Below, piece after piece: positions 3,526-23,669 of a stretch of DNA of 48,431 bases (within the stretch, counting starts at the first letter, position 1; each line of letters starts with the position of its first letter). The stretch is from a phage. The position numbers and the translations under genes are program-made. Below the pieces are notes generated by a model, which was not told the origin of the DNA, made no database searches, and saw nothing but the letters and a program-made list of their open reading frames with translations. The stretch is from the NCBI GenBank assembly GCA_012646845.1, contig GCA_012646845.1_4707.1, one strand, 5' to 3'.

Positions 3526-4128
3526 TCACATGCTTTCTAGCATATTGACGATCATGGAACCCATACCGAAACTCGGTCTTTCACCGATGTACTCAGCAAG
3601 CTGGCGATGGACGTCTTTTGGATTTCCTTCTTCACCATCGGCGTCGATGTAAACCGAAAAAGAAAATGAATCGGAATCCACGCTGATAACCAGACGACGC
3701 TCATTGCGTTCCTTGAGTGTGTCGACAATAGCTGCTTTCAGTACCGCGATCGCGTTCATCGCGTGCAAGATATCCCCATCGGGTTTCGGCAGATCGATCT
3801 TTTCTTTCAGATCGATATTGATGTTGGTTACAATTGGGTTGAGGTCGACCTTGACATAATCGTTAGGGTACATGCGAATAATCGCACGATCGATATCTGA
3901 ACCGTAAAAGTCAACACGTGGCTTTAACACTTCTTTGTTTGGATCCATGTTTTCATCCATACCCGCCTGTAGAAAGCGTTCTACGTTATCCAGTTCACGA
4001 TAGATTGACGCTTCGATTTCTTTCAGATAGTTGGCTGCGGTTTCATGTTCTTTACGCAGCTCGTCTTTAAGGAGCTGTACGGTGGTTTCACTGGAACGAA
4101 TGCTGTTTGCGAATTGGGTAATTGACAT
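3526..4128 (-). CDS. hypothetical protein
   Basis: ORF track (TTG start at 4158); preferred ATG at 4128 with AAGGAA SD. Confidence 0.6.
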   Translation of the reverse strand: MSITQFANSIRSSETTVQLLKDELRKEHETAANYLKEIEASIYRELDNVERFLQAGMDENMDPNKEVLKPRVDFYGSDIDRAIIRMYPNDYVKVDLNPIVTNINIDLKEKIDLPKPDGDILHAMNAIAVLKAAIVDTLKERNERRLVISVDSDSFSFSVYIDADGEEGNPKDVHRQLAEYIGERPSFGMGSMIVNMLESM

Positions 4129-4176
4129 ATCGAATTCCTTAAATTCTCTTGAGTTCAATTAATGATGAAAAGCTGT

Positions 4177-4201
4177 AAAAAAGGGTGGGGCGAACCCCAC
4201 C
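4177..4201 (-). terminator. intrinsic terminator-like hairpin GGTGGGG-CGAA-CCCCACC followed by U-run on minus strand
   Basis: perfect 7-bp stem, tetraloop, A-run 4177-4182 on plus strand. Confidence 0.6.
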
Positions 4202-4226
4202 AAAACGTCAGACACACGCAGGAAAA

Positions 4227-4649
4227 TTAATTCAGTGACGTGTACAACGCATAACGACTATAGATCTCAACCGCTGGTCCGTTATGCGTTAACAGACCAT
4301 CTCGGTTGTAGTATTGGAAAAATGAATAACGTTTGTCGAAGTGATAAACGAAAGCAATGTCTTTGTCAAGACCTGTGATGCGCGGTCTGTTTTTATCTAG
4401 CAATGCTTTGACTTTTAACAGTGTTGCCGCACGTGCTTTAACATTAGGGATTAATCCATCACAGTCGATATAAACCGTGTAACCTGTTTCAGATGTTGCG
4501 ACGGTTGTATTGCGATTGATGCGGAAGATTTTTGTTTTGTATGTATCATCTTCAAGAATTGGGTTTTGTTTTTCGTATTTTCGTTTACGCAGAAATTCTA
4601 CAACGGTAATATAGTTAGCGGTGATATGTCCGGTTATAGCTTGTAACAT
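4227..4649 (-). CDS. hypothetical protein
   Basis: ORF track; conserved leader with AAGAGGA SD immediately upstream. Confidence 0.65.
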   Translation of the reverse strand: MLQAITGHITANYITVVEFLRKRKYEKQNPILEDDTYKTKIFRINRNTTVATSETGYTVYIDCDGLIPNVKARAATLLKVKALLDKNRPRITGLDKDIAFVYHFDKRYSFFQYYNRDGLLTHNGPAVEIYSRYALYTSLN

Positions 4650-4795
4650 CTTGACATCCTCTTATATTGGATTGATTACAGTTATCTTAAATAGGCGATA
4701 AGATATCTTGCTCTTATCACCTAGGTTGCGTTTTGTTAATAACAAAACGCATCGCCTTAGTGACCTATGTCACTAAGGTAATATAGCCGTGAAAT
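4650..4795 (-). promoter_or_regulatory. conserved promoter/leader element copy A: CTATATTAC motif, two inserted hairpins, conserved 28-nt RBS leader
   Basis: 4650-4677 and 4777-4794 are identical to 32967-32994 and 33039-33056; copy A carries an extra ~51 nt (4726-4776) forming two perfect hairpins. Confidence 0.45.
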
Positions 4796-4830
4796 AGACT
4801 GCGTTAACAAGAAATAAAACAGCATAAAAC

Positions 4831-4870
4831 CTCCTCCCCCATCCTTCAAGAGGACGGTGGGAAGAGGGAG
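4831..4870 (-). terminator. pyrimidine/purine-arm hairpin downstream of gene 4876..5277
   Basis: CCTCCTCCCCC...GGTGGGAAGAGGGAG imperfect inverted repeat (pairs with G-U in minus-strand RNA). Confidence 0.35.
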
Positions 4871-4875
4871 AGAGA

Positions 4876-5277
4876 TTAAATGTCGTGGACGGCATTGCCG
4901 TTTAACCAGCAATACAGCTTAACGCGACACGGATACCGCTTCGTTGCAGCAACCATTTCACCGCGTAAACGCTGGTAGATTTCATCCTGGTGTTCACGTT
5001 CAATGGGGTAATCAGCCCAGCATTCGATCATGACGTCACCATTAGTCAGAATCGTCGTACGCATCCTGTCCTGGACTCGACGATCTTTCCCGGCATTAGG
5101 GAAATACATCCCTTCAGTACGAATAAGGTCGCCACAGGGCATGACTAACCACTCATTCGTTTTGCCGGTATTCTTATAATCCATTACAGCTTGCATTGCG
5201 GTGTCAACGCTAAAAGAAACATAATTCCAAACGGGGGTCCAACGATAGATTGCGGGTTGTTCAAGTGTTTCGTTCAT
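4876..5277 (-). CDS. hypothetical protein
   Basis: ORF track; AGGAAA SD. Confidence 0.6.
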   Translation of the reverse strand: MNETLEQPAIYRWTPVWNYVSFSVDTAMQAVMDYKNTGKTNEWLVMPCGDLIRTEGMYFPNAGKDRRVQDRMRTTILTNGDVMIECWADYPIEREHQDEIYQRLRGEMVAATKRYPCRVKLYCWLNGNAVHDI

Positions 5278-5491
5278 GAGGCGCTTTTCCTATTTTTATT
5301 TTCTGCACAGGATAAATTCAACGGCATAAAGCCCTTCCCTGCCCTTATATGGGGCGGGAAGAGTTTATGACCGCAATGAGAATCTCTCACGACAAGCTCA
5401 CGACGATTATCGCATCACCCCGCGAGTGAGGGAGATCAGGATCACCTCCTACGTCGTAACGACAGTAATCCCGTTAACGTCGCCTTAGGCA

Positions 5492-6130
5492 TTATGCGAA
5501 GCGACGCATGTAACCTGCCAGATAGTTACGTGTATCGAAGTAAGCAATTTCAGGAATTGCGATATTAAGGTCGATAGCACGGATTTCAACTTGGCGACGG
5601 CTTTCATCATAGATCGCATCCATCAGACGCAGTACTGTCAGGAAAGCCATGCGGGTATGGTAGTCCAGCGGCATGTTGTCGATACCGCGATACAGATAAC
5701 GGTTTGCGTTAAATGCCCCTTCGCGGTTATCTTTCCAGATCTTCAGAATATCAGCAAAGGCGGTGCGGAAAACCTCAGGATTATCCACATCCAGTAACGC
5801 ACGGAAAGCAGACATTAAAGACCGCTGATGACGGATCAACGACTGCGGCGTTTGCGGCATGGTCGGACCCATTTCTTCAGCATATTTTTGGAACGGGGCA
5901 ACCAGGGTTGCGGCACGAGAAGCAACGATAGAAATAGCAGAGGATTCATTCACCGCTGGTTTCGCAGGCTTTTCTTCAACGGCGGTTTCCTTCTTCTCGA
6001 CAGCGACCGTTTCCGGTTGTGCTACAACGTTGCTGGTCGAAGCAGCAGCCACACCATTTTCCACGGTGGTCTCTACTGCTGTAATCTTTTCTTCCACTTG
6101 TGCGGAACGTTGGTCTTTATTCTTGCTCAT
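5492..6130 (-). CDS. hypothetical protein (acidic, low-complexity N-terminus)
   Basis: ORF track; AAAGGAAA SD. Confidence 0.6.
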   Translation of the reverse strand: MSKNKDQRSAQVEEKITAVETTVENGVAAASTSNVVAQPETVAVEKKETAVEEKPAKPAVNESSAISIVASRAATLVAPFQKYAEEMGPTMPQTPQSLIRHQRSLMSAFRALLDVDNPEVFRTAFADILKIWKDNREGAFNANRYLYRGIDNMPLDYHTRMAFLTVLRLMDAIYDESRRQVEIRAIDLNIAIPEIAYFDTRNYLAGYMRRFA

Positions 6131-6155
6131 GTCTATTTCCTTTCATTTAACAAGG

Positions 6156-7457
6156 TTAACTAATATAAAGTTCAGGATCGTAAGGCGCTAACGATACACT
6201 GGCGTTATGCATTGCTTTCATCATAGTGTTCATGAAAACGTTGTTTACACCGGTGATCTCTGCCCCGATCGCGTCTGGGGTTGGAGCCATCGCGTTACCG
6301 CAACAGGTAGCACAGTATTCCAACGGACCCGCTTTACAGCGCTGAGGATCACGTAACTTGATGGTTTGTCCTTCCAAGGAAGCGAATAATTCAGCATCAA
6401 TAAGTTTAAGCGCTGCGCCATCGATCATGTAACGGCCGACGAGCAGTTTATCTTTGATGTGGTCGCGGTTTACCGTGAACAGAATATGTTCTTGGGTACC
6501 GCAGTCGTCCATCGTGATCTTAAGGTTCTGTGTTGCACGTTGCGATTCTTTAGCCGTTTGTCCAGCTAAAGCGGTCAACGCACCACGCGAGAACGAACCA
6601 GCACGTGCACTGTTGTTGTACTCCGCCCAATGGTCGACGCGCATCCCTTCGGCCAGGCTGTGCGTGATAACGTTACGTTTACCAGGGTCAACGAAGTCGG
6701 CTTCAACCCCCATCATGATGTGTGTTTTCTTTCGAGTATTACCGAAACTCTTACCGGGGTTAATATAGAACCCTTCCGATTCATCGCCCTTAAAGGATTC
6801 CTTATCCATTTTGGTTAGCGTGGCTTCGAGTTTGATCAGTTCTTCAGGCGTAAACTTACCTTCCTCTTGCAAGCGCGCTAACTCTTTATCACGATAGGCA
6901 ATAATATCATCATCGACCGTTAACGCTTTATCGCTCATTGAAGGCACAATTAAGCGGTTAATGGCGGTTAATGCGCTGATATTGTTGGTGAATTTCTTCA
7001 CCTCGCTTGCGTACAGTGGACCAATCGGACGTTCGTTAGGATCGGGTATTCCCTCTTCGGGATCATCTGCTACGCGCGGTGCAATCAGTGATTCTAGTGT
7101 ACCGCTGGTTAACCGTCCTGCCTGATATTCAATCTGAATACCGAAAGCGTCATAAAGGACGTACATATTGAACAACGCTTCACCGAAGGTTGTGGTGGTT
7201 GTGTTCTTAACCGACGGTAGATCGCCAGGCGCAAGCTCCAACGGATCCCAGAAATTCAACAAGGGTTTTGTTGGTTCTGTTTCCCATTGGTGTTCTTCAC
7301 CGTCGATGGTAACCGTAACGATGTTACCTTGACGACGTAATTTAGGCTGATACTTCTCAGCGCCGCCTTCCGTAAAAGCAAATGCGTCGTTAATCCACTC
7401 AAGATAACGGTAGTGCCCTTCACGCAACGCGTAAAGGAAATAATCACGAGGTGTCAT
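6156..7457 (-). CDS. multisubunit RNA polymerase beta-prime-like subunit, C-terminal fragment
   Basis: ITMDDCGTQEHI matches bacterial beta-prime VTEDDCGTHEGI; downstream C-x2-C-x-G (CATCCGN) and AIGAE segments at the spacing seen in RpoC; AAGGAG SD. Confidence 0.6.
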   Translation of the reverse strand: MTPRDYFLYALREGHYRYLEWINDAFAFTEGGAEKYQPKLRRQGNIVTVTIDGEEHQWETEPTKPLLNFWDPLELAPGDLPSVKNTTTTTFGEALFNMYVLYDAFGIQIEYQAGRLTSGTLESLIAPRVADDPEEGIPDPNERPIGPLYASEVKKFTNNISALTAINRLIVPSMSDKALTVDDDIIAYRDKELARLQEEGKFTPEELIKLEATLTKMDKESFKGDESEGFYINPGKSFGNTRKKTHIMMGVEADFVDPGKRNVITHSLAEGMRVDHWAEYNNSARAGSFSRGALTALAGQTAKESQRATQNLKITMDDCGTQEHILFTVNRDHIKDKLLVGRYMIDGAALKLIDAELFASLEGQTIKLRDPQRCKAGPLEYCATCCGNAMAPTPDAIGAEITGVNNVFMNTMMKAMHNASVSLAPYDPELYIS

Positions 7458-7470
7458 GTAACAACTCCTT

Positions 7471-8343
7471 TTAAACGTGGGTCAGGTCACCGTGACGTGA
7501 AACGAACTCTGATAACGCTCGAGTTGCTTCTTTGGATTCTTCAGCCATCGGGAAGTTTGTGGTAACAAGTTCTCGTAGGACAGGAATGATTTCGTTATCT
7601 TCAAGATCGGAAGCCAACGCGAATGCGATCAGTTCTTGGGTGTACGCATACGGCTGCTGACGTAATGCGGCAAGCTGATTCCGACACTGCGACATTAGCA
7701 GGTCCAGTGGAACCGCTATCGTACCCCCTTCATCAATATACTGACCGAATACCGGTGGGAACGCATCGCTGATTACACGAATTCGTCGACGGATGCGATC
7801 AGGAATCTGGACGTTTTCTTCATCAGCGATATTTTCGCTGTCTTTCTCCAGCTTCTTGGTTAACACCTGCTGGATACGTGGGAGCAGGCTTGAATGCACG
7901 AAACTGATTAATGATGCTACGCCCGCAGCATCGACACCGTAAATATAATGCACGCATTCCGCTAGCGCTTCAGCTGTGGTGTAGTCTTCATCTTCAACGA
8001 TGGCGAGTAGAAAAGCGGTATCGTCATGTGTTTCCAGGTCTAATAACGTAGACGCTAACGCATGAAGATACTTCAGGCTATCCAGGGATAGTTGTCCTTC
8101 GTTAATCCGTATCCCGAAGGCAAGCAATTGTTGTTTATAAAGTTCGATACACCCGTTTGTTAAAATGACATCTAATTCGTTTAAATCGTATTGTTCCCCA
8201 GCACCTGACAACATCGTACTACAAAACGTTTCCAGTTGCTCGCATTTAAAATCTTGGTATAAACGATACATGCAGTGCTGTAACAGCGTACGCCTTGTTT
8301 CAGGGATCTTACCTTCTAACAAAGCCAAGACGGAATCAATCAT
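7471..8343 (-). CDS. hypothetical protein
   Basis: ORF track; ATG at 8343 preferred over GTG at 8349. Confidence 0.55.
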   Translation of the reverse strand: MIDSVLALLEGKIPETRRTLLQHCMYRLYQDFKCEQLETFCSTMLSGAGEQYDLNELDVILTNGCIELYKQQLLAFGIRINEGQLSLDSLKYLHALASTLLDLETHDDTAFLLAIVEDEDYTTAEALAECVHYIYGVDAAGVASLISFVHSSLLPRIQQVLTKKLEKDSENIADEENVQIPDRIRRRIRVISDAFPPVFGQYIDEGGTIAVPLDLLMSQCRNQLAALRQQPYAYTQELIAFALASDLEDNEIIPVLRELVTTNFPMAEESKEATRALSEFVSRHGDLTHV

Positions 8344-12541: not shown

Positions 12542-15154
12542 TTATACGTCCGGCGTAAAATCAAAAGGAACGTCCGTACGAATGATATCATAACGTTTTC
12601 CTAAGAAATAGAACTCTTCGGGAACCAGACCGGGAACGATGCTATCGCCGATGAACTGTGGGTATGCCCAGATGTACTGAGTGAGTCCTTCGAACATATC
12701 CAGGTTATTTGCGTGGTTACCCATGATACGTTTCCAGAGTTCGCGTTTATACGGTGTTTTAACATCGAACCCATAAAGCGGTGCGAGGTCTTCACCAGGA
12801 ACAAATCCCAGGTAATAGTGGATCTGACTAACCGGGAAACCAAGCGTATCTCGCGGAATGGTGATCGCTTGCTCAGCCTTGGTGACATGCGTCTCAATAA
12901 TCCAGTCGTAGCACTCCGAATAGAACCGATCGAATTTCTCTGGATTATACCACGCTTTGGGAAGATTCAGTTTCTCCGTGAACGCGTTCGACATGATCGT
13001 CGGCAAGAACGGAAGAACGCCGGTTTTGATCTGTGTGTATTTCGATTTTACCCGATTGACTAGATTCCAGCAACTGTATCCTAATTGATCGTTGCAGAAC
13101 TCAACGTAGAGATCGTAATCCCCACCCGATAATGGATTATTAATATCGCCGATGTCTGCCGCATATTTGTTGGGGTATCGGTTATTGAAAGCCAGTTTGG
13201 TTTGGTAATCGTAAATGCACGGTTTATTGTTCTTCGTGTTAATCCACCACCAGGGTTCACCCACCTGCACACAAATGTCTTGGACATGCGGGTAGATGAT
13301 ATCAGCAAACGCGGTTAACACATCCCCTAACCACGCCATCGCGTGTTGGTTGCATGGCGACAACAACCAAGACGGCGGCGTATATCCGGTTGCTGCTATG
13401 TTTCCTTCCCAATCCTGCTGCGCCCACTCGAACGGGCATGCCGTACTCATCAATTCGTAACTTAAACTGATTGTAACAGAGAAATGGTGTTTTGCAGCGT
13501 ATGCGGCGAAAGCTTCATGCCATGCGATACAGGGTGGGTTGAGTACATCTGTGGTGTTCACCAGTAACTTACTCGCACTTGGTGTCCAGACAGTATCGTA
13601 GAAATGCGACATTCCAACATAGTGCACTAATTCATCTTGATATCCCGCATAAACCAGGTTCTCAAATACGCGTTCCGGCGTGATATTGTAATGGTCGTCA
13701 TAAGCGGTTATCGCACGAAGCTCGTGTGGTGTACATTGGTGACGATTAACCGTCATTTCCTGATACACCCCATCAATAGGAAGAATCTCGAGGGTTAAAC
13801 AGAGGTCGATCGGTGTTTCCAGGTAGGTCGTTTCTGTAGCACCTTCCTTATAATGTCGAGAACTCATGCTGAACATCAACGACGTGACCGATTCGAGTTC
13901 GATAGGTTCGTCAGCATAGAACCCCGCCATTGCGTCGTTGAAATCGATCGTTACGATTGCGCTTGTACCGTCTTCAGAGACGTCGGTGGCGTATCGGGTT
14001 AATGAGATATACTGACGGCTATCGTCTTTGTGTACGACGGTTAAAACCGGCGGGTTTTCGGTATCTGCAAAGTTCCGCTGGTCACCAGTAAACGTGATCT
14101 TGGCTTTAAAGATCAAACCGAGCAACGACGTCATGGGATCATACGCAACACAACCATGATCTAGCGTATCCGTTGTCCGCCATTCTATCCCTACCAACCC
14201 GTTAGCGGTATGGCATCGCATATACGCATTAAGTGTCATGTCTTCACTGACAACCGCGAAGTTCTCTGTAGATTGACCATTGATAATCCAATACATCGGT
14301 TGCCAGAGGTTACGCGTGCCTTTTGCGTAGCGGTAGGTTGGTGCACCTTTAGGGTTGCCGTTATTGAGATGGAATACAGCCGTACCTTGGTAATGATCGT
14401 TCGTGTTAATCGGAACACTGTACGCGTCGCCGAGGTCCGTACGTTCGACCTTCGTGACAGTTGCGTTTTCAAACAGCCCACGTAGTGTAGGAAGACCAAT
14501 GTCATCAGGCGCGTTTTCTCGGCGAATCGCGTCCGCGATGCGGTGGGCTAGGGCGGGGTAAATGGTCTCACCCTGCTGTAGGTTTGCAAGACCTACAAAG
14601 CGATCGGGGTTGATACCAGCAATCAATAACTCGACATCGCCCTTCGTTCTATCGTCATGGAGGTATTTCAGTCCAGTAAGATCAAGATGTTGAATTAACG
14701 ACAACAGATTGTACTTACGGTTTTCAACAGTCAGTGCAAGATCACCCGCCCAAACCAAACTTCCCTCATCCGCCGTTACTCTAACGGATTGGCGGCCTGT
14801 GGTGGACGTTGTTGTCGTTTTATTTAATTGTCCTTGTAGGAAGTCGGTTGCGAGGTCAAAGGCAACGCCGTAACGGTCAGCGACCGCCTGCATGATTTCA
14901 CGTAACTGGGTATCTTCTTCAATGATGATCTTGACGGGTATTCCCAAGAACGCCTTGGCGAGGTCTCGCTTAACCATCGAGACGAATACGGATTTGTAAT
15001 ATCGGCCTCCATCTTTCCCTTTAAAAAGAATGGAGGTTGTTTCGGGTGACGATAGAACACGTGCAAATACAACATCGTCGAAAGTAAGAGAAAGTCCGTT
15101 TTTCTCGTTGGTTAATCTTAGTATTTCATTTTGCGCGGTTTCATGTAACTTCAT
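12542..15154 (-). CDS. tail fibre/tailspike-like protein with shared N-terminal anchor module
   Basis: 870 aa; N-terminal ~170 aa homologous to 21881..23635, 21196..21723 and 27286..28116 (RDLAKAFLGIP; NKTTTTSTTGRQSV...LTGLKYLHDDRTKG). Confidence 0.7.
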   Translation of the reverse strand: MKLHETAQNEILRLTNEKNGLSLTFDDVVFARVLSSPETTSILFKGKDGGRYYKSVFVSMVKRDLAKAFLGIPVKIIIEEDTQLREIMQAVADRYGVAFDLATDFLQGQLNKTTTTSTTGRQSVRVTADEGSLVWAGDLALTVENRKYNLLSLIQHLDLTGLKYLHDDRTKGDVELLIAGINPDRFVGLANLQQGETIYPALAHRIADAIRRENAPDDIGLPTLRGLFENATVTKVERTDLGDAYSVPINTNDHYQGTAVFHLNNGNPKGAPTYRYAKGTRNLWQPMYWIINGQSTENFAVVSEDMTLNAYMRCHTANGLVGIEWRTTDTLDHGCVAYDPMTSLLGLIFKAKITFTGDQRNFADTENPPVLTVVHKDDSRQYISLTRYATDVSEDGTSAIVTIDFNDAMAGFYADEPIELESVTSLMFSMSSRHYKEGATETTYLETPIDLCLTLEILPIDGVYQEMTVNRHQCTPHELRAITAYDDHYNITPERVFENLVYAGYQDELVHYVGMSHFYDTVWTPSASKLLVNTTDVLNPPCIAWHEAFAAYAAKHHFSVTISLSYELMSTACPFEWAQQDWEGNIAATGYTPPSWLLSPCNQHAMAWLGDVLTAFADIIYPHVQDICVQVGEPWWWINTKNNKPCIYDYQTKLAFNNRYPNKYAADIGDINNPLSGGDYDLYVEFCNDQLGYSCWNLVNRVKSKYTQIKTGVLPFLPTIMSNAFTEKLNLPKAWYNPEKFDRFYSECYDWIIETHVTKAEQAITIPRDTLGFPVSQIHYYLGFVPGEDLAPLYGFDVKTPYKRELWKRIMGNHANNLDMFEGLTQYIWAYPQFIGDSIVPGLVPEEFYFLGKRYDIIRTDVPFDFTPDV

Positions 15155-15176: not shown

Positions 15177-15818
15177 TTAGATGTACTGCTTACCGCCCAC
15201 GAAGGAAGTTAGCCAGTTCCCACTGACAAGCTGTGATACCCAGCCAGGCACTGCCCTGCCATTCTGGCTCATGACATTACCACACCAGCCAGGGAATCCG
15301 GGACGGATATAATAGAAAGTTAAATTGTAGAGATGGCAATTCCATACCGCAACGTTATGTTTACCAGAAACCGCTTTAAAGACAAACGCAACGGGTAAAG
15401 GCGACGATAACAATTCGGTCACAGGGACGGCCGACCAGTTCGCATTCGCATTCCATGGTTGCCAGGTATGGCTACGCGAGTCGCAAAATACGTTACCGTT
15501 GTTACCGCGCCCACCCGCATGCCACCACAGCGACGGACTCATGTTCTTAAGTGAGGTAAATTGCTGTGGTGGAATATTAGGAATAATAACAGGGTTGGTA
15601 CCTTGCCCATGTTTCTTTTCTTTTGCGTTTACATACCCACTTATCGATTCGAGGTATTTGACACCAGGATAATTGTTCTGGACTTGTGTCGCAATATCAC
15701 GGACATCAAACGTCCAGCAGATCATGGTGTTGTAGTAAGCATCGGTGTTGTCGTACCAAGCGTTACCATCTTGTAAACGTGCGCCACTATTCGGTGTTTT
15801 ATCTGTGCTTATAGCCAT
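15177..15818 (-). CDS. hypothetical protein, paralogue sharing C-terminal module with 15925..16590
   Basis: C-terminus GFPGWCGNVMSQNGRAVPGWVSQLVSGNWLTSFVGGKQY nearly identical to neighbour; ~100-bp near-identical DNA. Confidence 0.65.
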   Translation of the reverse strand: MAISTDKTPNSGARLQDGNAWYDNTDAYYNTMICWTFDVRDIATQVQNNYPGVKYLESISGYVNAKEKKHGQGTNPVIIPNIPPQQFTSLKNMSPSLWWHAGGRGNNGNVFCDSRSHTWQPWNANANWSAVPVTELLSSPLPVAFVFKAVSGKHNVAVWNCHLYNLTFYYIRPGFPGWCGNVMSQNGRAVPGWVSQLVSGNWLTSFVGGKQYI

Positions 15819-15924: not shown

Positions 15925-16590
15925 TTAAATTGATGTTAGATACTGCTTACCTCCGACAAACGATGTCAACCAGTTCCCACTGACAAGCTGTGATACCCAG
16001 CCAGGCACTGCCCTGCCATTCTGGCTCATCACGTTACCGGCCCATCCCGGAAAACCAGGTCGGAAAATATATACTTGAATATGTGTTAAAGCGTTATCAT
16101 TACCTCCACCAACAGCAACATTACGACGTCCGGATGATGGGAAATATTCTTTTAAGAACAGGGGATCGTTTGCCAATAAAGAAGCAGGCCAAGGATTAGC
16201 GGATGCGTCAACATCGAATTCGGTCCATCGCCATTTGCGCCCAGTATCGAACCAGGTTGACGTACCACCGCCACGCACCGCAAGATTGCGTGCGTCACGG
16301 GCACTGTATATTGATTCGATGTTGCGCCACCCACCTTTTGCGACGTTTGCCGCATAGCAAATCGCATTACCACCATTCTTCTTTTCGTAAACGGTTCGTT
16401 TGATATGAACACGGTCGATAAACGCTTCACCGTATTTGTTGACGAGTGTTTGCGCGATATCACGAAGATCGTGCATATGAAAGGCGATGTCTTCGTTGTG
16501 GAACCACGTTGTCGGGTTCCAAACGGTGCCGTTTGGTTCGGCACACATCGATCTGATGTTGTTGCGTTGATTAATCGCGATAAAGCCCAT
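15925..16590 (-). CDS. hypothetical protein, paralogue of 15177..15818
   Basis: start set to ATG 16590 (GAGGTGGACC SD), aligns with N-terminus of paralogue. Confidence 0.6.
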   Translation of the reverse strand: MGFIAINQRNNIRSMCAEPNGTVWNPTTWFHNEDIAFHMHDLRDIAQTLVNKYGEAFIDRVHIKRTVYEKKNGGNAICYAANVAKGGWRNIESIYSARDARNLAVRGGGTSTWFDTGRKWRWTEFDVDASANPWPASLLANDPLFLKEYFPSSGRRNVAVGGGNDNALTHIQVYIFRPGFPGWAGNVMSQNGRAVPGWVSQLVSGNWLTSFVGGKQYLTSI

Positions 16591-16653
16591 GGTCCACCTC
16601 GTTCCTGTTCTCGAAGGAAATTTCATACGATGACGCCATAACAGCTCCCCCAT

Positions 16654-16695
16654 CCTCCCTTCCCTTACGGGTTGGGAGGATGTAAGGGAAGGAGG
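16654..16695 (-). terminator. long hairpin CCTCCCTTCCCTTAC...GTAAGGGAAGGAGG downstream of lipoprotein gene
   Basis: ~14-bp inverted repeat read directly. Confidence 0.5.
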
Positions 16696-16705
16696 AACTA
16701 CTTAA

Positions 16706-17209
16706 TTACTCGCTGACAACCTCAACGGAATTGGGATCGGCGATCAGCGCACGGTCGGTAGAACAATTGAAGAAGACCATGCCAACACCATCGCCGTTCG
16801 AGTTCAGGGTTGAACTTACGTAAGACAATGCTGGTTTATTCATACGGTAGAAGCGTTCGTTGGTGGTGGTATTGAACCCCAGATCAACGTAGTCTTTCAC
16901 CGTGGTGTACAACTGTGTGGACTCGAAAACGGTTACCGGAGAGTCAACGGTAAACTGACTACCTTCGTCCACTACCAGAACTTTATCGTTCCAGATTTCA
17001 GTGGTTGAGAACTTCGGTTTCCAGTGTTCGAATTCCTGGGTTGCTCCCCAGCAGGAATACACAGCGAGATCGCTGTTCTTCTCAACAGGTTTTAACCCCA
17101 CCAGTTGTGTCAGACCTTTATCCAGATTCGGTAAGCCTTCCAGTGTAGCACACCCACCCAGAGAAAGTACCATCAACATACCGAGAATAATCGCGCAAAG
17201 TTTCTTCAT
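16706..17209 (-). CDS. lipoprotein (signal peptide with lipobox LGGC)
   Basis: MKKLCAIILGMLMVLSLGGCATLEG; AAGGAAA SD. Confidence 0.75.
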   Translation of the reverse strand: MKKLCAIILGMLMVLSLGGCATLEGLPNLDKGLTQLVGLKPVEKNSDLAVYSCWGATQEFEHWKPKFSTTEIWNDKVLVVDEGSQFTVDSPVTVFESTQLYTTVKDYVDLGFNTTTNERFYRMNKPALSYVSSTLNSNGDGVGMVFFNCSTDRALIADPNSVEVVSE

Positions 17210-17253
17210 CGTCGGATTTCCTTATGTGTTAACGGAAGTGATTTCCATAGTAA

Positions 17254-17670
17254 TTACACAGTTTTAGGAAATTCCGGCCAATCGATATTTGGCGCGGCGT
17301 CGGTATCGATAGCCGTCACCTCGTCAATGTAATCCAAAACAGCATTAAGTTGGGCTGTTTCTTCCGGAGTCAGTTTTCGCCCGGCCCGTAATTTTAACTG
17401 AATAAGATCAATGGAAGCCAGCGCAGAGTCAATCAGAGATTTTTTCATCTGTTCTGCCTCGGCGACGAGATCTTCGTGTTGCCGCTCGGGTTCCGGAGGT
17501 GCGGTAAACTCACCATTTGAGTATAACCAACCTATTCCGGGCGACACAGCTCCCGTATCGCTAATGCCGACCAACTGTTGATTGTCAGATACATTGAGTT
17601 CTGCTTCGCCATCGTAAACGATCGTGTTTACTACCACCCCATTTTCAATAACAGCGTATGATGTACTCAT
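17254..17670 (-). CDS. tfa: tail fibre assembly chaperone (lambda Tfa-like)
   Basis: C-terminus AEAEQMKKSL...LDYIDEVTAIDTDAAPNIDWPEFP matches lambda Tfa C-terminal domain; ATG overlaps fibre stop (TAATG). Confidence 0.8.
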   Translation of the reverse strand: MSTSYAVIENGVVVNTIVYDGEAELNVSDNQQLVGISDTGAVSPGIGWLYSNGEFTAPPEPERQHEDLVAEAEQMKKSLIDSALASIDLIQLKLRAGRKLTPEETAQLNAVLDYIDEVTAIDTDAAPNIDWPEFPKTV

Positions 17671-20600
17671 TACATAAACTCCTCGATGATGCAAATCCCG
17701 TCAGCGCCACGCCCACCACGCATAACGGTTCCAGTGTAACCGTTATCGTAAGCGCCGCCACCGCCCGAACCTCGTGCGAGGCCGTTTGACCCGCCACCAA
17801 CAGCTGCGCGACCACCGCCACCCCAATATGACGCACCCCCACCACCACATACAGGAAATGCGCCAGCTTGACCGTCATCACCATCACCACCTGAAATGCG
17901 TATATCCCCGGTACTAGGTGTACCACCACCCCCACCACCAGTGTTTGTGACGGTTGTTTTTCCTGCGCCTTGCCCACCGGGAGCAGTTAGTAGGGATGCA
18001 AATTTACTATCCCCGCCCCTGTTTCCAATTGTTGCCCCGGAACCACCAGTGCCACCAGAACCAATTACGACAGAATAACTAGTAGCTGTTACCGCTATAA
18101 CCGAAATTACTGTTCCACCGGCCCCACCGCCAGCACCAAAAAACGTTTCGCTGTTGGAAAAAGCCTGGCAACCACCGCCGCCGCCTCCACCACCGGTTAA
18201 TATTACTCTAATCCGTTTTGTTCCTTGTGTTGGGGTGTACGTCCCTGACGATGTGAAAACACGCGTATTCAGTAAACGTCCGACATATCCGCTAGAATCG
18301 GCTAAACCAAGATCTTTAGCTGCTAACGTTATATTAGCTGTACCGTCAAACGGTTTACCGTTAATCGTGCGCGCGGTCTGCAACTTCGTGGCCGTTGCTG
18401 CGTTTCCTGACGTATTCTGGTTTCCCGCGGCGTTAACACCTGGTAGATTGATGTTCGCACTACCGTCGAAAGATACCCCACCAATGGTGCGGGCTGTTTT
18501 CAGTTTTGTCGCCGTGGCAGCATTACCGGTTGTGTCTTGGTTACCGGTGGTGTTTACCCCAGGCAGGTTGATATTGGCTGTTCCGTTAAATGAAACACCG
18601 CCAATCGTCCTTGCTGTTTGCAGCCTCGTTGCGGTTGCTGCGTTCCCCGTGGTGTTTTGGTTACCCGTTGCATTCACGCCCGGGATACTATCCTTAGATG
18701 TGTAGATCTGTGCCCATTCCGACCAGTTAGAATCGGCTGCATCACGACGTGAACGTAAATAAGCCGGAGCGTGTGTGCCCGAGGTACCTGACCAACCAAT
18801 GAGGATTTCACCTTCACCGGCCGATGAAGCACCTTTGAGGTGAATAACGTTACCATAGGCGGTTGGGTAGCCGTTACTGTACGCTTCATACATCTGGATA
18901 CCGGTATTACTACCTTGGGTCGCATTAGCTAACGCGGTAACACGACCTTTGGAGGCGAGAGCGGTAATACTGAAGCTAATGTCCTTAGTACCGTCAAAGG
19001 CGACCCCATTAATCTTCCGTGCTGTTTGGAGTTTCGTGGCAGTAGCCGCGTTACCAGAGGTACTCTGATTACCTGCTTTGTTCACGCCAGGCAAATCAAT
19101 GTTGGCTGTTCCATCAAAGGACACACCCCCTATGGTTCTCGCTGTCTGGAGTTTTGTTGCTGAGCCAGCGTTTCCGGAAGTACTTTGATTACCTGCCGCG
19201 TTGACGCCCGGTAGGTTAATGCTAGCAGAACCATCAAAAGAAACTCCACCTATCGTGATCGGTGTTTTCAATTTCGTGGCTGTCGCAGCGTTACCGGTTG
19301 TATTTTGATTGCCTGTCGCATTAACGCCCGGTAATGCAATATCCGCTGTTCCGTCAAAGGCAACGCCGCCGATTTTACGGGCGGTTTGTAGCTTGGTTGC
19401 ACTAGCAGCGTTACCACTGGTATTCTGGGTGCCAGCTTTGTTAACACCCGGGAGATCGATGTTAGCAGAACCATCGAAGCTGACGCCACCTATCGTTCTT
19501 GCAGTAGCGAGTTTAGCTGCTGTGGCTGCATTGTTACCCACTTTCAGCCAATCATCCCATGGACCATCCTGGCCGTTCCACGATGCCGTTAAACTACGTA
19601 CGTAAATATTGCCAGTACGTACAGTGTAACGTTGCGTTCCACCGAATTGTCCAGCAGGGAGCACTTCAAGGTAACCTGCGGCATTTGCTTCAGGGAAATT
19701 GTGGGCGACGTCCGCATTCGTCGTTATTGGTTTAGACCAAATACCCACAGACGCTTCAACCGGACCGTAAGTATTCAGATTTGCGTCGGTGGGGAGCTGT
19801 CCTCGAAAACGTTGGAATTGTGTCGCCGATAACCCCAACGTTGTTTGCATGCTTTCAATGCTGGATTGCTGAAGTAACGTCCGTGCTGTCGACGTAATCA
19901 CGGTAAGCGCAACTTTATTAACACCGGTGAAATACGGGAGTTTGTCTGCTGATGTCGCTAAACCTGAAAAGGCGGTCAGTAATGCGTTAAGGGGCTGCTT
20001 CCCAGCTAACGCATTTGTTACCGTCGTTGCGAAATTAGGATCGCTTCCTATAGCTCGAGCCAGCTTATTAAGCGTATTTAGCGTCGCTGGTGACGAGTCG
20101 ATCAGCGCCGTGATCGCACGCATCACAAATTCCGTGTTGGCTATCTGTCGACTGCTATTGTTAACTGCTGCGGTGGGCGCTGCTGGCGTACCAGTGAATA
20201 CAGGGCTATTAAGATCCGCCTTGAGGGCGATGAGACGTTTAAGCGCTTCAACATCAACTTTCAGGTTTTCCCATCCGATGAGAGAACCACCACTGCTGGC
20301 ATGGTAACGGTTGTACCAGAAGTCACCGTTAACGCCTAAAAAGAATATTCCCTTCTCTTCGTTTTGTGGACCGGAACTATTTCGTGACGAGCTGATGTAA
20401 TTGATTTCAATAAGACCAGTAAACGTCACTCCTGGGATTATTTTGTTGTCTCCAGCTGACTGTGATACTTGGTAAATCCCCGGGGTTGCGGCTTTAACCC
20501 ATGTTAAGAATTCTGTTACTCCAGCGGTACCGCTAAAATTCTTAACGTCGGTAAGTATCGCCCCATAACCGAACATACCGGGTAGAGCCACTCGTCCGCT

Positions 20601-21188
20601 GGTACGGTCACGAATATCTGTCGCAACAACAGGCAATTGTTTACGAACGGCATTAACCGCTTTAGGCGTGGCCGATTTTGTCTCGTCATCGCTATCGGTT
20701 TCATTACTTAGAATAGTTAAACCGCGTGTAGCAGTAGTTGCATCAGGAAGAAATGCGTTATCCAACACCTTAAGCTGTATTGCACTCGTATTACTAACAA
20801 CGACATGCACCTGACAGTTAAGAACGCTGGTTGCGCCTTCGGCAGGCGTAGGCTTATATCTTTCTGGTGCACTGCAGACGGCAATCAGAACACCTTTATC
20901 GTCGTACAGACCGATCTCACGTACCCAGAACCCACCTTGACCAGCAGGAATAATACCCTCAACGACAATCCTGGTTGTACTATCGCCATCCGCATGGATA
21001 TTAGAAACTTCCCCACGATAAACTTCGTGAACAAGTGCTGTTTGGCTGGCGGTCGGGGTTGGTGTCGAGCCGTTACCATCACCAACGGCAAAGTGTGTGA
21101 TTTTTAGTTTCTCACCGTCGGGAAGTAACGCAGCGGTGATACGTTCTGCTCCTTTATCGGTAACTACCGTTTTATATGCTGTACTCAT
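17670..21188 (-). CDS. long tail fibre protein: P2 gpH-like N-terminus, two blocks of ~38-aa fibre repeats, Gly-rich C-terminal tip
   Basis: N-term MSTAYKTVVTDKGAERITAA...HFAVGDGNG; repeats GNAATATKLxTARTIGGVSFDGxANIxLPGVN; C-terminal poly-Gly motifs; start set to ATG 21188. Confidence 0.85.
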   Translation of the reverse strand: MSTAYKTVVTDKGAERITAALLPDGEKLKITHFAVGDGNGSTPTPTASQTALVHEVYRGEVSNIHADGDSTTRIVVEGIIPAGQGGFWVREIGLYDDKGVLIAVCSAPERYKPTPAEGATSVLNCQVHVVVSNTSAIQLKVLDNAFLPDATTATRGLTILSNETDSDDETKSATPKAVNAVRKQLPVVATDIRDRTSGRVALPGMFGYGAILTDVKNFSGTAGVTEFLTWVKAATPGIYQVSQSAGDNKIIPGVTFTGLIEINYISSSRNSSGPQNEEKGIFFLGVNGDFWYNRYHASSGGSLIGWENLKVDVEALKRLIALKADLNSPVFTGTPAAPTAAVNNSSRQIANTEFVMRAITALIDSSPATLNTLNKLARAIGSDPNFATTVTNALAGKQPLNALLTAFSGLATSADKLPYFTGVNKVALTVITSTARTLLQQSSIESMQTTLGLSATQFQRFRGQLPTDANLNTYGPVEASVGIWSKPITTNADVAHNFPEANAAGYLEVLPAGQFGGTQRYTVRTGNIYVRSLTASWNGQDGPWDDWLKVGNNAATAAKLATARTIGGVSFDGSANIDLPGVNKAGTQNTSGNAASATKLQTARKIGGVAFDGTADIALPGVNATGNQNTTGNAATATKLKTPITIGGVSFDGSASINLPGVNAAGNQSTSGNAGSATKLQTARTIGGVSFDGTANIDLPGVNKAGNQSTSGNAATATKLQTARKINGVAFDGTKDISFSITALASKGRVTALANATQGSNTGIQMYEAYSNGYPTAYGNVIHLKGASSAGEGEILIGWSGTSGTHAPAYLRSRRDAADSNWSEWAQIYTSKDSIPGVNATGNQNTTGNAATATRLQTARTIGGVSFNGTANINLPGVNTTGNQDTTGNAATATKLKTARTIGGVSFDGSANINLPGVNAAGNQNTSGNAATATKLQTARTINGKPFDGTANITLAAKDLGLADSSGYVGRLLNTRVFTSSGTYTPTQGTKRIRVILTGGGGGGGGCQAFSNSETFFGAGGGAGGTVISVIAVTATSYSVVIGSGGTGGSGATIGNRGGDSKFASLLTAPGGQGAGKTTVTNTGGGGGGTPSTGDIRISGGDGDDGQAGAFPVCGGGGASYWGGGGRAAVGGGSNGLARGSGGGGAYDNGYTGTVMRGGRGADGICIIEEFM
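18290..18700 (-). repeat. coding tandem repeats (~114 bp) within tail fibre gene, block 2
   Basis: imperfect direct repeats visible in DNA and protein. Confidence 0.6.
18950..19520 (-). repeat. coding tandem repeats (~114 bp) within tail fibre gene, block 1
   Basis: imperfect direct repeats visible in DNA and protein. Confidence 0.6.
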
Positions 21189-21195
21189 GGTGTTT

Positions 21196-21723
21196 TTATC
21201 CTGGATAAATAGTGATGATATCACCAATGACCGTTGTGGCACCGGCGTAAAGATGAGCCGGAGATACATCGTGTTGGTTTGTCACGGTAAGATCTAATCG
21301 ACCACGCCAAACCATGGAGGTATTCGCGATGGGGATAGAAATCTTTTTGGATATATCGTCACGAAAATCAATAACAGTGGCAAGGGTAACTGCATCAAAG
21401 TCAACGTCGGGATCAAAGACGAACCCGTATTGATCTGAAATCGCCCGAATAATCGCGTGTATAGTTGTTGTCTTAACAGACTCTAAAACGATTTTTATTG
21501 GTATTCCTAGAAATGCCTTCGCAATATCGCGTCGAGCGTAAACGATAAAACTTTCACCGTTCCACCTTGTTCCTTCATTTGCTGTGACGATCACTTTTGC
21601 CCTGTTAGCACCAGAACTTCCATCCAAGACTAATGTAAGATCGGAGCTGTTGAATACGCTACTGTTACGTCTGTTTATCAACGACGTCAGTTCGTCTTTC
21701 CATGGCGGGTAAAGTGAACACAT
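21196..21723 (-). CDS. short protein consisting of the shared fibre N-terminal module
   Basis: YARRDIAKAFLGIPIKIV; start set to ATG 21723 (GGAGGAGGG SD). Confidence 0.65.
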   Translation of the reverse strand: MCSLYPPWKDELTSLINRRNSSVFNSSDLTLVLDGSSGANRAKVIVTANEGTRWNGESFIVYARRDIAKAFLGIPIKIVLESVKTTTIHAIIRAISDQYGFVFDPDVDFDAVTLATVIDFRDDISKKISIPIANTSMVWRGRLDLTVTNQHDVSPAHLYAGATTVIGDIITIYPG

Positions 21724-21836
21724 ATGTGCACCCTCCTCCAACATAACCAGATTAATTATAAATTTCTTAAACGTGGAACACGATTCGAGATAAACGTAAA
21801 CGGTCTTAACGACCGCATAAAATTCCGCGCATATTA

Positions 21837-21880: not shown

Positions 21881-23635
21881 TTATGCTGCTACATATCCAG
21901 GCCAACGTTCTCTTGGCCAGTTTGTTGCGCCCTGTCCAACGTTGTCCTTACCAGAAGTTACGTTACTCACATCCCATCCACTCAGATCCTGATTGAACGC
22001 GGTGTTTTCGCGCATCATGAGATCGATCTTACGTAGCGAACGGGTATTCCAGCCGGAAATGTCTTGGTTGAATGCCGTATTGTAGGCAAACATGTTAGAC
22101 ACGCTTTGTAATTTTGAGGTGTTCCAACCACTGATGTCGCTATTGAACGACATACTTGAGAACATGCTGCTCGCATCAACAAGACTGTCAGTTTTCCAAT
22201 TAACCAGTTTATCACCATCAAGTGCATCGCTGCTGCTGAACATAAAACTCATGTCGTTAACTTTGGACACATCCCATTTATCCAACCCGTTACCCACGAA
22301 CGCAGGACAGGACGAGAACATATAACTCATATTAGTAACCCGACTCACATTCCATTTACTGAAGTCGAGGTTAAGTTTCTGACACCCTAAGAAGGTTTTA
22401 CACATGTTGGTGATACGACTAACATCCCACTCTTGGATGTTGGGGTCGTTAAGCGTCGTTAAATAGTTGAACAATGTCGCTAACGACGTCCATTTCTCTG
22501 GAATCCGGTTTGGTACCGTACGAAGCGATGCGAGGTTGTTGGTTGACGGAGAGCAGAACATACCGTTATCCCAATTTACGATCTCCGTAATTTTGGACCC
22601 TTTGATCGTCTGAGTGACGTTACCATCTTTCACCATACCTGTAGCGACGATGGTATATTCACCAGTGTCCGCATAATCGTGGGTGTAGGAGTTGTTGCTT
22701 GAGGTCTCCGTTACTTTATTCCCATCACCCCAATCGATATTGACCTTATCCCATCCACCTAGGTAGAACTGTACTTTGCCTCCGGTGGCTTTTAGGATAT
22801 ATTTACCCCCATTGTCGGTATAATAACAGACAACCATTGAACCGTACAGATTACCTATCTGCCAATCATCCTTTTGCGATATTGCGATTTGCGCCGCACC
22901 ACGCTGTACGAAGAGTACCGTACGATTCTCGGCAGTCTGTAATGTGGTTATTGCCTGAGCTTTATCGTCCTCGCTAATTTCACCAGATCCCACCAAAGCG
23001 CTTAACATCCTTTCGAAGTATTCGATCGGTAACTCAGCTCCAACAGACTTATCAACAGACTGTACAGCAAGATCGCCCAATGCTGCAGTGGTAGCCAACG
23101 CCAATGAACCCTTGGTCATATCTGTTTCTTGGATGTAATGCAGTCCCGTAAGCTGGTACGCTTGAATAATAGTAATCAGGTTCAGCGTATCGTTAACGAC
23201 CTGTACCTGTAAATGCCCGGACCATACATAGCTGCTTTCAGCAATCGGTAGCTCGACCGATTGAATACCTGATGTTTCAAAGGTGATCTTCTTATTAAGA
23301 TCGGTTTCCAGGAAATCAACCGCGAGGTCGAAATTCATGCCGTACTTTTCAGCGATGGAATCTACGATATTCTTGAAAGCAACATCTGTGCTTACGATAA
23401 AACGTAACGGAATTCCCGTAAACGCTTTAGCGATGTCTCGACGAACATACGTAAGCGATTGTTCGAAGAAATAGGGACTGTTATCTCCAGGCTTGATGGT
23501 TACCTGACACGCTTCAGGATATTCAGCTGGGATGAACGATTCGAATTTAACGTCGGATTCCTTCAACGAAAGCTTGTTATTCCGGTTCACTAACGCCAGA
23601 AGATCGGCTTTCCATCCGGGGTAAACTGTAGACAT
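21881..23635 (-). CDS. tailspike/fibre-like protein: shared N-terminal module plus C-terminal DUF285-type repeats
   Basis: N-term YVRRDIAKAFTGIP; C-terminal repeats WDVSRITNMCKTF / WNVSRVTNMSYMFSSC / WDVSKVNDMSFMFSSS / WNTSKLQSVSNMFAYNTAFNQDISGWNT. Confidence 0.7.
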   Translation of the reverse strand: MSTVYPGWKADLLALVNRNNKLSLKESDVKFESFIPAEYPEACQVTIKPGDNSPYFFEQSLTYVRRDIAKAFTGIPLRFIVSTDVAFKNIVDSIAEKYGMNFDLAVDFLETDLNKKITFETSGIQSVELPIAESSYVWSGHLQVQVVNDTLNLITIIQAYQLTGLHYIQETDMTKGSLALATTAALGDLAVQSVDKSVGAELPIEYFERMLSALVGSGEISEDDKAQAITTLQTAENRTVLFVQRGAAQIAISQKDDWQIGNLYGSMVVCYYTDNGGKYILKATGGKVQFYLGGWDKVNIDWGDGNKVTETSSNNSYTHDYADTGEYTIVATGMVKDGNVTQTIKGSKITEIVNWDNGMFCSPSTNNLASLRTVPNRIPEKWTSLATLFNYLTTLNDPNIQEWDVSRITNMCKTFLGCQKLNLDFSKWNVSRVTNMSYMFSSCPAFVGNGLDKWDVSKVNDMSFMFSSSDALDGDKLVNWKTDSLVDASSMFSSMSFNSDISGWNTSKLQSVSNMFAYNTAFNQDISGWNTRSLRKIDLMMRENTAFNQDLSGWDVSNVTSGKDNVGQGATNWPRERWPGYVAA

Positions 23636-23652
23636 AAGCACTCCAAAGTTCA

Positions 23653-23669
23653 TGGGGCGGTAACCGCCC
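23653..23669 (-). other. short perfect hairpin GGGGCGG-TAA-CCGCCCC between large structural gene and downstream fibre gene
   Basis: read directly; lies just upstream of the start region of gene 21881..23635. Confidence 0.4.

Follow-up and report, generated by a model that had tools for sequence, protein, structure and literature searches.

Does the long open-reading frame with a glycine-rich end that occupies positions 17670 to 21188 of the window (the whole stretch of phage DNA analysed here, 48,431 nucleotides) encode a receptor-binding tail fibre, and to which known type does its end belong? The window is 92.6% identical in nucleotide sequence to Escherichia phage Goslar over 24.8 kb, and on the explanation that best covers the locus as a whole, which we consider very probable, a jumbo phage of E. 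coli that resembles Goslar and forms a nucleus encodes here its long tail fibre and the chaperone dedicated to it. All features described here lie on the minus strand. The fibre gene (17670..21188) is a single ORF of 1172 amino acids plus stop, the end at 17670 counting the stop codon in; its ATG at 21188 stands in the context AGGA-N10-ATG, and the stop of the upstream gene lies 7 nt before it. The orthologue of this gene in Goslar is gp090 (YP_009820775.1, 1324 aa; about 85% amino acid identity). The tail fibre assembly chaperone gene, or Tfa (17254..17670; 138 aa plus stop), is the orthologue of Goslar gp089, and its ATG and the TAA stop of the fibre gene overlap by one base (TAATG, read 'gtaATGagt'). 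NCBIfam holds no model for the fibre or chaperone proteins of the locus. The G+C content rises to 0.50-0.51 at 17-20 kb, the window value being 0.46; recent transfer was considered and rejected as the cause, because the excess lies in codon positions 1 and 2, from glycine and alanine codons, and GC3 (0.42 for the fibre and 0.355 for the tip) is not above that of the neighbouring genes.

The preliminary description, made from the letters of the sequence, had proposed a P2 gpH-like N-terminus, and this was borne out. Residues 1-141 (20766..21188) match PF12571 with an E-value of 1.1e-41, homologous to P2/186 fibre proteins, and the N-terminus is 42% identical to the K protein of phage 186 and P2-like H tail fibre proteins, with 99% of 182 aa covered; residues 1-182 are 97.8% identical to Goslar. 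Homology identifies this N-terminal domain as the part by which such fibres dock onto the baseplate. It is followed by one copy of the 'phage tail fibre repeat' PF03406 (residues 151-182; 20643..20738; E = 3.2e-8) and by a proximal shaft (residues 183-447; 19848..20642) with a collar-type motif (SPxFTGxPxAPT... ALIDSSPATLNTLNKLA...DPNFATT). Residues 357-415 match the tail collar fibre gp4 of Bxb1 (9D93_La, E = 3.9e-8), and this collar motif was the only useful match in single-sequence PDB searches with the full fibre, the insert between the repeat blocks and the chaperone. Lambdoid Stf-like fibres from IMG/VR share 46-48% identity with the proximal shaft, and Goslar shares 82.6%.

Two segments of the shaft are not repetitive. 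The one ahead of repeat block 1 (residues 448-551; 19536..19847) is 82.7% identical to Goslar, gave no match in a Pfam search and is possibly a globular knob. The other, an insert of about 95 aa between the repeat blocks (residues 740-834; 18687..18971), has no match in PDB or Pfam and is kept in E. coli prophage fibres (for example, P0005); it is 91.6% identical to Goslar in amino acids, yet its dS is 1.28. The two segments were compared as candidate paralogous knobs and showed no detectable relation (BLASTP E = 0.096), and no such relation is claimed.

The two repeat blocks described earlier are real, as is the spacer of about 90 aa (in fact about 95), but the period is not 38 aa: it is exactly 40 aa or 120 nt (TRF period 120). 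In block 1 (18972..19535; TRF score 322), the five units of 40 aa start at residues 552, 592, 632, 672 and 712, the final one being truncated, and block 2 (18333..18686) has a half unit and three 40-aa units starting at 848, 888 and 928; the closing unit of either block keeps just its first ~27 residues. The eight units are 45-90% identical to one another in amino acids, with ten invariant columns, and the same units recur in many tail-fibre families of PHROG as well as in Goslar, so that they are not a product of chance. A profile of the repeats matches the C-terminal part of the Dec protein of phage L (6E3C, E = 6e-4). Goslar has seven units in block 1 and four in block 2 (11 against the 8, 5 + 3, of the window fibre), and the number of 40-aa units, as read from the sequences, varies among close relatives. 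Homology shows the shaft to be a mosaic of blocks shared with the fibres of enterobacterial phages and prophages, namely a collar motif, the 40-aa units and inserts without repeats. The fibre is an ordinary enterobacterial mosaic, made up of domain families that are already described.

The glycine-rich C-terminus was confirmed: glycine makes up 33% of the last 193 aa and 37% of residues 999-1165, with 14 runs of at least two glycines. The tip domain (residues ~972-1172; 17673..18275) belongs to PF21722 (Gly_rich_2), which matches residues 980-1169 with 51.1 bits against a curated Pfam cutoff of 24.3 bits. A profile of the tip family matches the fibre of cyanophage Pam3 in the PDB (7YPX_A, E = 3.6e-19), profile positions 108-325 being aligned to chain residues 69-285, that is, to the whole domain. 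Structure prediction of this end, proposed in the preliminary description as a check, gave a compact fold and not disorder (AF2 monomer model from a diverse alignment; pLDDT 95.2, pTM 0.89): a TNF-like beta-sandwich running into a glycine-rich lattice. In a 50%-identity library, 6605 clusters matched the tip family at E<=0.001, with the glycine positions conserved; a tblastn search of the phage collection with the tip, weakened by the low-complexity filter, gave only 19 records. Homology and prediction together indicate that the tip is of the Pam3 gp24 type, in which the strands of the beta-sandwich extend into a lattice of glycine-rich segments. It is of a type already known, a compactly folded receptor-binding domain first solved in Pam3. 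Our literature search found no paper naming PF21722, and bundles of glycine-rich PPII/polyglycine segments are a fold class in the literature (PMC9608196; PMC13243192); the Pam3 structure is a trimer in a 3:3 complex with its chaperone, with a conserved glycine stem and a variable distal tip (PMC9608196). The window fibre would likewise be a trimer with three tip lobes, the AF2 model itself being a monomer.

The tip and the chaperone are also the parts that differ most from Goslar. Amino acid identity is 84.5% in the tip and 85.5% in the chaperone, against 93-97% in the neighbouring genes and 97.8% in the N-terminal domain; for tip and chaperone against the neighbours, the dN/dS values are 0.21-0.24 and 0.06-0.10, all well under 1. 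Within the tip, the glycines are conserved and the inter-glycine positions are variable, as the preliminary description expected, although the enrichment of window-Goslar differences at non-glycine loop positions is weak (Fisher p = 0.10, one pair). Further Goslar-like phages were sought in IMG/VR, and Goslar alone was found; tip variation among related phages is therefore judged on this one pair and is not tied to host-range data.

What, then, does the tip bind? That it makes the contact with the receptor, as suggested earlier, would follow from its homologues: in Klebsiella phage TFP_Y, which binds LPS, the glycine-rich domain carries the host-range mutations T169 and S209 (PMC12671077). On strain BW25113, a genetic screen assigns the receptor of Goslar to LPS, with GluII as the sugar, and its hits include galU, hldE and waaF (preprint 10.64898/2026.04.02.716166, Table S1, Dataset S1). 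Because the Goslar screen points to the LPS outer core and Klebsiella tips of the Pam3 type bind LPS, LPS binding is the likeliest function of the tip by analogy, and the receptor of the fibre would most likely be the LPS outer core.

Another reading, which we regard as possible but unlikely, is that the tip belongs to a real fibre and does not bind LPS; it would recognise a protein or another glycan, or serve only in reversible scanning, and the LPS dependence would come from other baseplate proteins (DUF7941 proteins or gp025). Deep LPS-core mutants can also lower outer-membrane protein levels, which counts in favour of this reading. So do the ten DUF7941 proteins of Goslar, three of which have carbohydrate-binding, glycoside hydrolase or LRR domains, its second 'tail fiber' protein, gp025, and the entry of the binding protein as 'Unknown' in the receptor preprint (10.64898/2026.04.02.716166). 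However, the characterised Pam3-type tips of enterobacterial phages bind LPS (PMC12671077), and divergence within the locus is greatest in the tip and chaperone. The tip is a concrete candidate receptor-binding protein for Goslar-type jumbo phages, and residues ~972-1172 together with the adjacent chaperone make up the piece to exchange or mutate in host-range engineering.

The gene directly downstream of the fibre gene encodes a protein of the Caudo_TAP family (PF02413, E = 2.4e-20; 73.4 bits against a cutoff of 22.1 bits), to which it is assigned by sequence; no solved chain in the PDB had a detectable sequence match. The preliminary description was right about a Tfa-like chaperone coupled through TAATG, but the gene lies outside the interval 17670-21188 in which it had been included. 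In purified Goslar virions, gp090 was estimated at about 43 copies (29-68) and gp089 at about 52 (35-82), the latter from two peptides and in a preparation that also held non-virion assemblies (preprint 10.64898/2026.04.21.720040, Table S4); in the Goslar cryo-EM map, fibre density is not assignable. The comparable amounts are suggestive only with respect to a 3:3 fibre-chaperone complex. The translationally coupled Tfa would be needed for folding and trimerisation of the tip, as Pam3 gp25 is for gp24, and it may remain bound to the virion.

The likeness to the adhesin gp38 of T2 and S16 seen earlier holds for the glycine-rich PPII/polyglycine class, and does not extend to the family. The gp38 of Salmonella phage S16 and of T2 (PDB 6F45) resembles the window tip, according to the literature, in having glycine-rich motifs that form a PPII/polyglycine lattice, whose distal end bears variable receptor-binding loops; the preliminary description had read the tip as an adhesin of this type fused to the fibre. 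But gp38, a monomer and a protein in its own right, has a beta-helix as its middle domain and a three-layer lattice of ten motifs, and differs in family and overall fold, whereas the window domain forms the C-terminal end of the fibre polypeptide itself and is not a separate protein docked on the tip of gp37. The last 220 aa gave PF21722 as the only match at E<=10, with none to gp38, and no global similarity of fold to 6F45 was found; gp38 membership is largely refuted and quite improbable. Still less credible is an intramolecular chaperone of the kind known from phage T5 pb1 and the K1F endosialidase, which would be cleaved away once the fibre is assembled. The domain does stand at the C-terminus of a trimeric fibre, and such domains are known in other phage fibres, as noted in the Pam3 paper (PMC9608196), but a separate Tfa is encoded directly downstream, the homologous Pam3 domain stays in the mature virion fibre (7YFW), and fold searches found no match to intramolecular chaperone domains. 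A low-complexity, disordered or collagen-like end lacking a defined fold is refuted as far as prediction and homology go, and has next to no probability, since the AF2 run that favoured it (pLDDT 37.6, on 120 close homologues of ~70% identity) was rejected as a shallow-alignment artefact, in contrast to the diverse-alignment model, the solved homologue and the glycine positions conserved in the matching clusters.

By sequence comparison, the Pam3-type tip and its chaperone form a mobile cassette, a unit that Mu-like prophages of E. coli also carry, within their invertible tail-fibre segment. The peptide LGL(G/A/S)D is common to all homologues and stands where their unrelated N-termini end; in the window it is the module junction DLGLAD (residues 959-964; 18297..18314), a degenerate relic of an invertase crossover-like site. 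In one Mu-like prophage (L002), one arm of an inverted repeat of 18 nt codes for the corresponding NLGLGD; the window junction retains only CTTGGTTT, its partner arm is absent, and there are no inverted repeats of at least 18 nt in 16600-21800. All features of an invertible segment of the Gin/Pin type (inverted crossover sites on both sides of tip plus Tfa, and an alternative tip in inverted orientation) are present in that prophage, and the window does not contain such a segment. The annotation 'carbohydrate kinase' on hundreds of prophage proteins of E. coli is wrong: these are Mu-type fibre proteins with a tip of the PF21722 type. It is a tentative proposal that the tips of Goslar gp090 and of the window fibre recognise the outer-core glucose GluII of LPS, that Tfa is carried on the virion at about 1:1 as a component of the working tip and that tip plus Tfa were captured from Mu-like, invertase-switched cassettes; if true, chimalliviruses could retarget from a pool of temperate-phage cassettes.

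Among known systems, the closest is the orthologous pair gp090/gp089 of Goslar, with equal genomic position, the same domain order and the same 1-nt overlap. Besides its larger number of repeat units, gp090 differs in having 32 additional residues, aligned as a gap just ahead of window residue 448 (1324 against 1172 aa in all), and its tip of 193 aa carries 30 substitutions, of which 21 fall in the second half. The cassette of the Mu-like E. coli prophages consists of a 308-aa fibre, in the position of gene S and often misannotated as 'carbohydrate kinase', and Tfa; its tip is 70-73% identical to that of the window and its Tfa 65%, with the same junction peptide and the 1-nt overlap of fibre and Tfa. 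It is unlike the window in its invertible segment, second inverted tip-plus-Tfa pair and resolvase fragment, whereas the window copy is fixed. The 'tail wing brush' gp33 and tail spike gp29 of mycobacteriophage Bxb1 (PDB 9D93) belong to a siphovirus tail tip with another kind of attachment, and the profile match to gp33 is weak (E = 0.016). The glycine-rich extracellular domain of ALK/LTK (7LIR, 7LS0, 7NX3), found in cytokine-binding receptor tyrosine kinases of animals, shows a structural resemblance only, the tip having no Pfam match to PF12810. In Pam3 gp24 (PDB 7YPX, 7YFW; chaperone gp25), which is trimeric, the glycine-rich domain likewise belongs to the fibre chain; however, gp24 is a minimal fibre of 280 aa with only a helical N-terminus, whereas the window tip caps a mosaic shaft of about 970 aa.

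The tail fibre gene lies in a single long minus-strand open reading frame (17670-21269), the upstream 81 nt of which overlap the end of the preceding gene. The true start is the ATG at 21188 (MSTAYK...), which follows AGGA and lies 7 nt past the stop of the upstream gene, and the fibre is 1172 aa long (17670-21188, minus strand). The next gene on this strand encodes the 138-aa chaperone (17254-17670), and its ATG and the TAA stop of the fibre have one base in common ('gtaATGagt'). The TAATG coupling noted in the preliminary description is thus real, and the chaperone does follow the fibre, but just beyond the interval first assigned to the pair. The DNA of the window is 92.6% identical to that of Escherichia phage vB_EcoM_Goslar, a 237-kb jumbo phage of the genus Goslarvirus (Chimalliviridae), across a 24.8-kb stretch, and no phage record besides Goslar matched it. 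The orthologues of the two genes, Goslar gp090 and gp089, are annotated as 'tail fiber protein' and 'tail fiber assembly', respectively; this much is already known, and every domain of the fibre is in a described family. The two fibres are about 85% identical in protein but differ in length (1324 aa in Goslar and 1172 aa here), and the difference of 152 aa is accounted for by three repeat units of 40 aa and by 32 additional residues in Goslar, which align as a gap immediately ahead of window residue 448.

The fibre begins with a PF12571 domain (residues 1-141, E = 1.1e-41) and one PF03406 repeat (residues 151-182), and, Goslar aside, its first 182 aa best match the phage 186 K protein and P2-like H proteins (42% identity, 99% coverage), so the earlier term 'P2 gpH-like' was correct. 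Residues 183-551, which match no Pfam family, share 46-48% identity with the central part of lambdoid Stf-like fibres bearing other tips and include a collar-type motif that matches Bxb1 gp4. Two blocks of repeats had been recognized, and both exist, but their period is exactly 40 aa (120 nt by TRF) and not 38 aa, with units starting at residues 552, 592, 632, 672 and 712 and at 848, 888 and 928. Goslar has 7 + 4 units, whereas the window fibre has 5 + 3. Protein identity among the units is 45-90%, but their DNA identity is only 47-72%, which marks the duplications as old. The repeat profile found no Pfam family; its match was to the phage L decoration protein Dec (6E3C, E = 6e-4), in the C-terminal part. 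That part of Dec forms a trimeric beta-helical stalk, and by this analogy the repeats probably make up a trimeric shaft of beta structure. For the insert of about 95 aa at residues 740-834, no relative with a known structure was detected.

Within the tip (residues ~972-1172), glycine makes up 33% of the last 193 residues, which include 14 glycine runs and match PF21722 Gly_rich_2 at 51 bits (cutoff, 24.3 bits). The tip family is very large (6605 clusters at E <= 0.001 in a 50%-identity library), and its members closest to the window fibre are E. coli prophage proteins (70-73% identity). A profile of 113 diverse members matched Pam3 gp24 (7YPX, 7YFW) over the entire domain with an E-value of 3.6e-19. 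From a shallow alignment AlphaFold2 gave no usable model (pLDDT 37.6); on a diverse alignment the glycine-rich region is predicted to have a compact fold (pLDDT 95.2, pTM 0.89), as had been anticipated. The tabulated structural matches of this model are Pam3 gp24 (22.4; 200 residues aligned, 31% identity), Bxb1 gp33 (17.3), Bxb1 gp29 (12.5) and ALK glycine-rich domains (7.0-9.6), with which Foldseek agrees, and the tip is now assigned to the Pam3 gp24 structural family. S16 gp38 appears in neither set of matches and the gp38 Pfam family has no match in the tip, so the gp38-type adhesin family was rejected. The structural intuition behind that proposal was sound, since the Pam3, Bxb1 and S16 domains have been grouped together as PPII/polyglycine bundles (PMC13243192), but the family was wrong; this and the repeat length apart, the first finding is real and was mostly interpreted correctly. 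In Pam3 gp24, the strands of a TNF-like sandwich run on into a four-layer lattice with 12 glycine-rich motifs; conservation is seen in the glycine stem and variability in the distal tip, and the fibre, a trimer, binds its chaperone in a 3:3 complex (PMC9608196). The N-terminal ~200 residues of RemZ (PDB 8GL8_D, 1114-aa chain) also match the tip-family profile (E = 1.1e-5), so the glycine-rich domain extends beyond phage fibres.

Amino acid identity to Goslar is 97.8% in the N-terminal domain (1-182) and 93-97% in the neighbouring genes, and 85.5% in the chaperone, 84.5% in the tip and ~83% in residues 183-551. The dN/dS values of the last three are 0.21-0.25, against 0.06-0.10 for the neighbouring genes, and never approach 1. 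Between 17673-21188 of the window and 3973-7944 of the Goslar sequence (L001), dS varies more than tenfold. It is 0.09 for the N-terminal domain, 0.25-0.6 for most parts and 1.28 for the 95-aa insert, which is yet 91.6% identical in amino acids. This range suggests segment-wise recombination within the fibre gene and a mosaic history. In the tip, conservation is highest at the glycine positions and variation is greatest between them; enrichment of the window-Goslar differences in loop positions was not significant (p = 0.10; one phage pair).

In a Klebsiella phage, a fibre of the Pam3 type binds LPS, with host-range mutations in the glycine-rich domain (PMC12671077), and in a genome-wide screen the receptor of Goslar on BW25113 was assigned to LPS (sugar GluII), with the binding protein listed as 'unknown' (10.64898/2026.04.02.716166). 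Purified Goslar virions contain an estimated ~43 copies of gp090 and ~52 of gp089 (2 peptides) (10.64898/2026.04.21.720040); cryo-EM did not resolve the fibres. From these observations, the most probable role of the tip is to bind the LPS outer core, possibly with Tfa retained on the virion, and the tip becomes a testable candidate for the protein by which Goslar-type phages bind LPS. Credible alternatives are other Goslar proteins that have carbohydrate-binding domains.

Four neighbouring genes, all on the minus strand, were also noted. A 590-aa gene (21881-23653; DUF7941 N-terminus, weak PKD match, two DUF285 stretches) sits between the gp092 and gp091 orthologues, which are only ~205 nt apart in Goslar; the window phage therefore has an extra DUF7941-family protein by the fibre gene, and this could be another host-recognition protein. 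DUF7941 recurs in the 870-aa orthologue of gp086 (12542-15154), together with 'non-contractile tail sheath protein' N-terminal and TIM-barrel domains (PF23844, PF23845; E = 4.9e-85), and Goslar gp086 is among the DUF7941 proteins proposed to make up a fibre cloud. A 242-aa gene (15925-16653) between the gp088 and gp087 orthologues has no Goslar counterpart at that position; its product shares 38-39% identity with the 213-aa gp087 orthologue next to it (15177-15818), the C-terminal ~45 aa being nearly identical. Directly downstream of the chaperone, the 167-aa gp088 orthologue (16706-17209) has no Pfam or NCBIfam match and a signal-peptide-like start ending in LSLGGC, a possible lipobox; such a candidate lipoprotein beside a receptor-binding gene is reminiscent of the lipoproteins that phages encode to block receptors.

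The alignments show a sharp junction, LGL(G/A/S)D-x-SGYVGR, where N-termini unrelated to one another meet the conserved tip. Mu-like E. coli prophages carry a 308-aa tip-bearing protein in the fibre-gene position after a Mu gp48 homologue, followed with a 1-nt overlap, as in the window, by Tfa (65% identical to the window Tfa) and then by an inverted second Tfa, an alternative tip (Gp53-like_C) and a resolvase fragment. This segment is bounded by an inverted repeat of 18 nt, the left arm of which codes for the junction peptide NLGLGD. At 6001-8292 of locus L002 (E. coli contig CAJRFJ010000027.1), as in many E. coli genomes, the 308-aa protein lies in an invertible segment whose crossover-like site, AAACCTTGGTTTGGGAGA, encodes NLGLGD. 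The 308-aa proteins, widely labelled 'carbohydrate kinase' in many E. coli genomes, are Mu-type tail fibres with a Gly_rich_2 tip. The prophage locus has the layout of a fibre segment switched by an invertase, as in Mu and P1, and the tip cassette of the window is linked to the invertible cassettes of Mu-like prophages. However, whereas the prophage cassette is flanked by an inverted repeat, that of the window phage is fixed, since its junction keeps the degenerate core CTTGGTTT alone, with no partner arm in the window.
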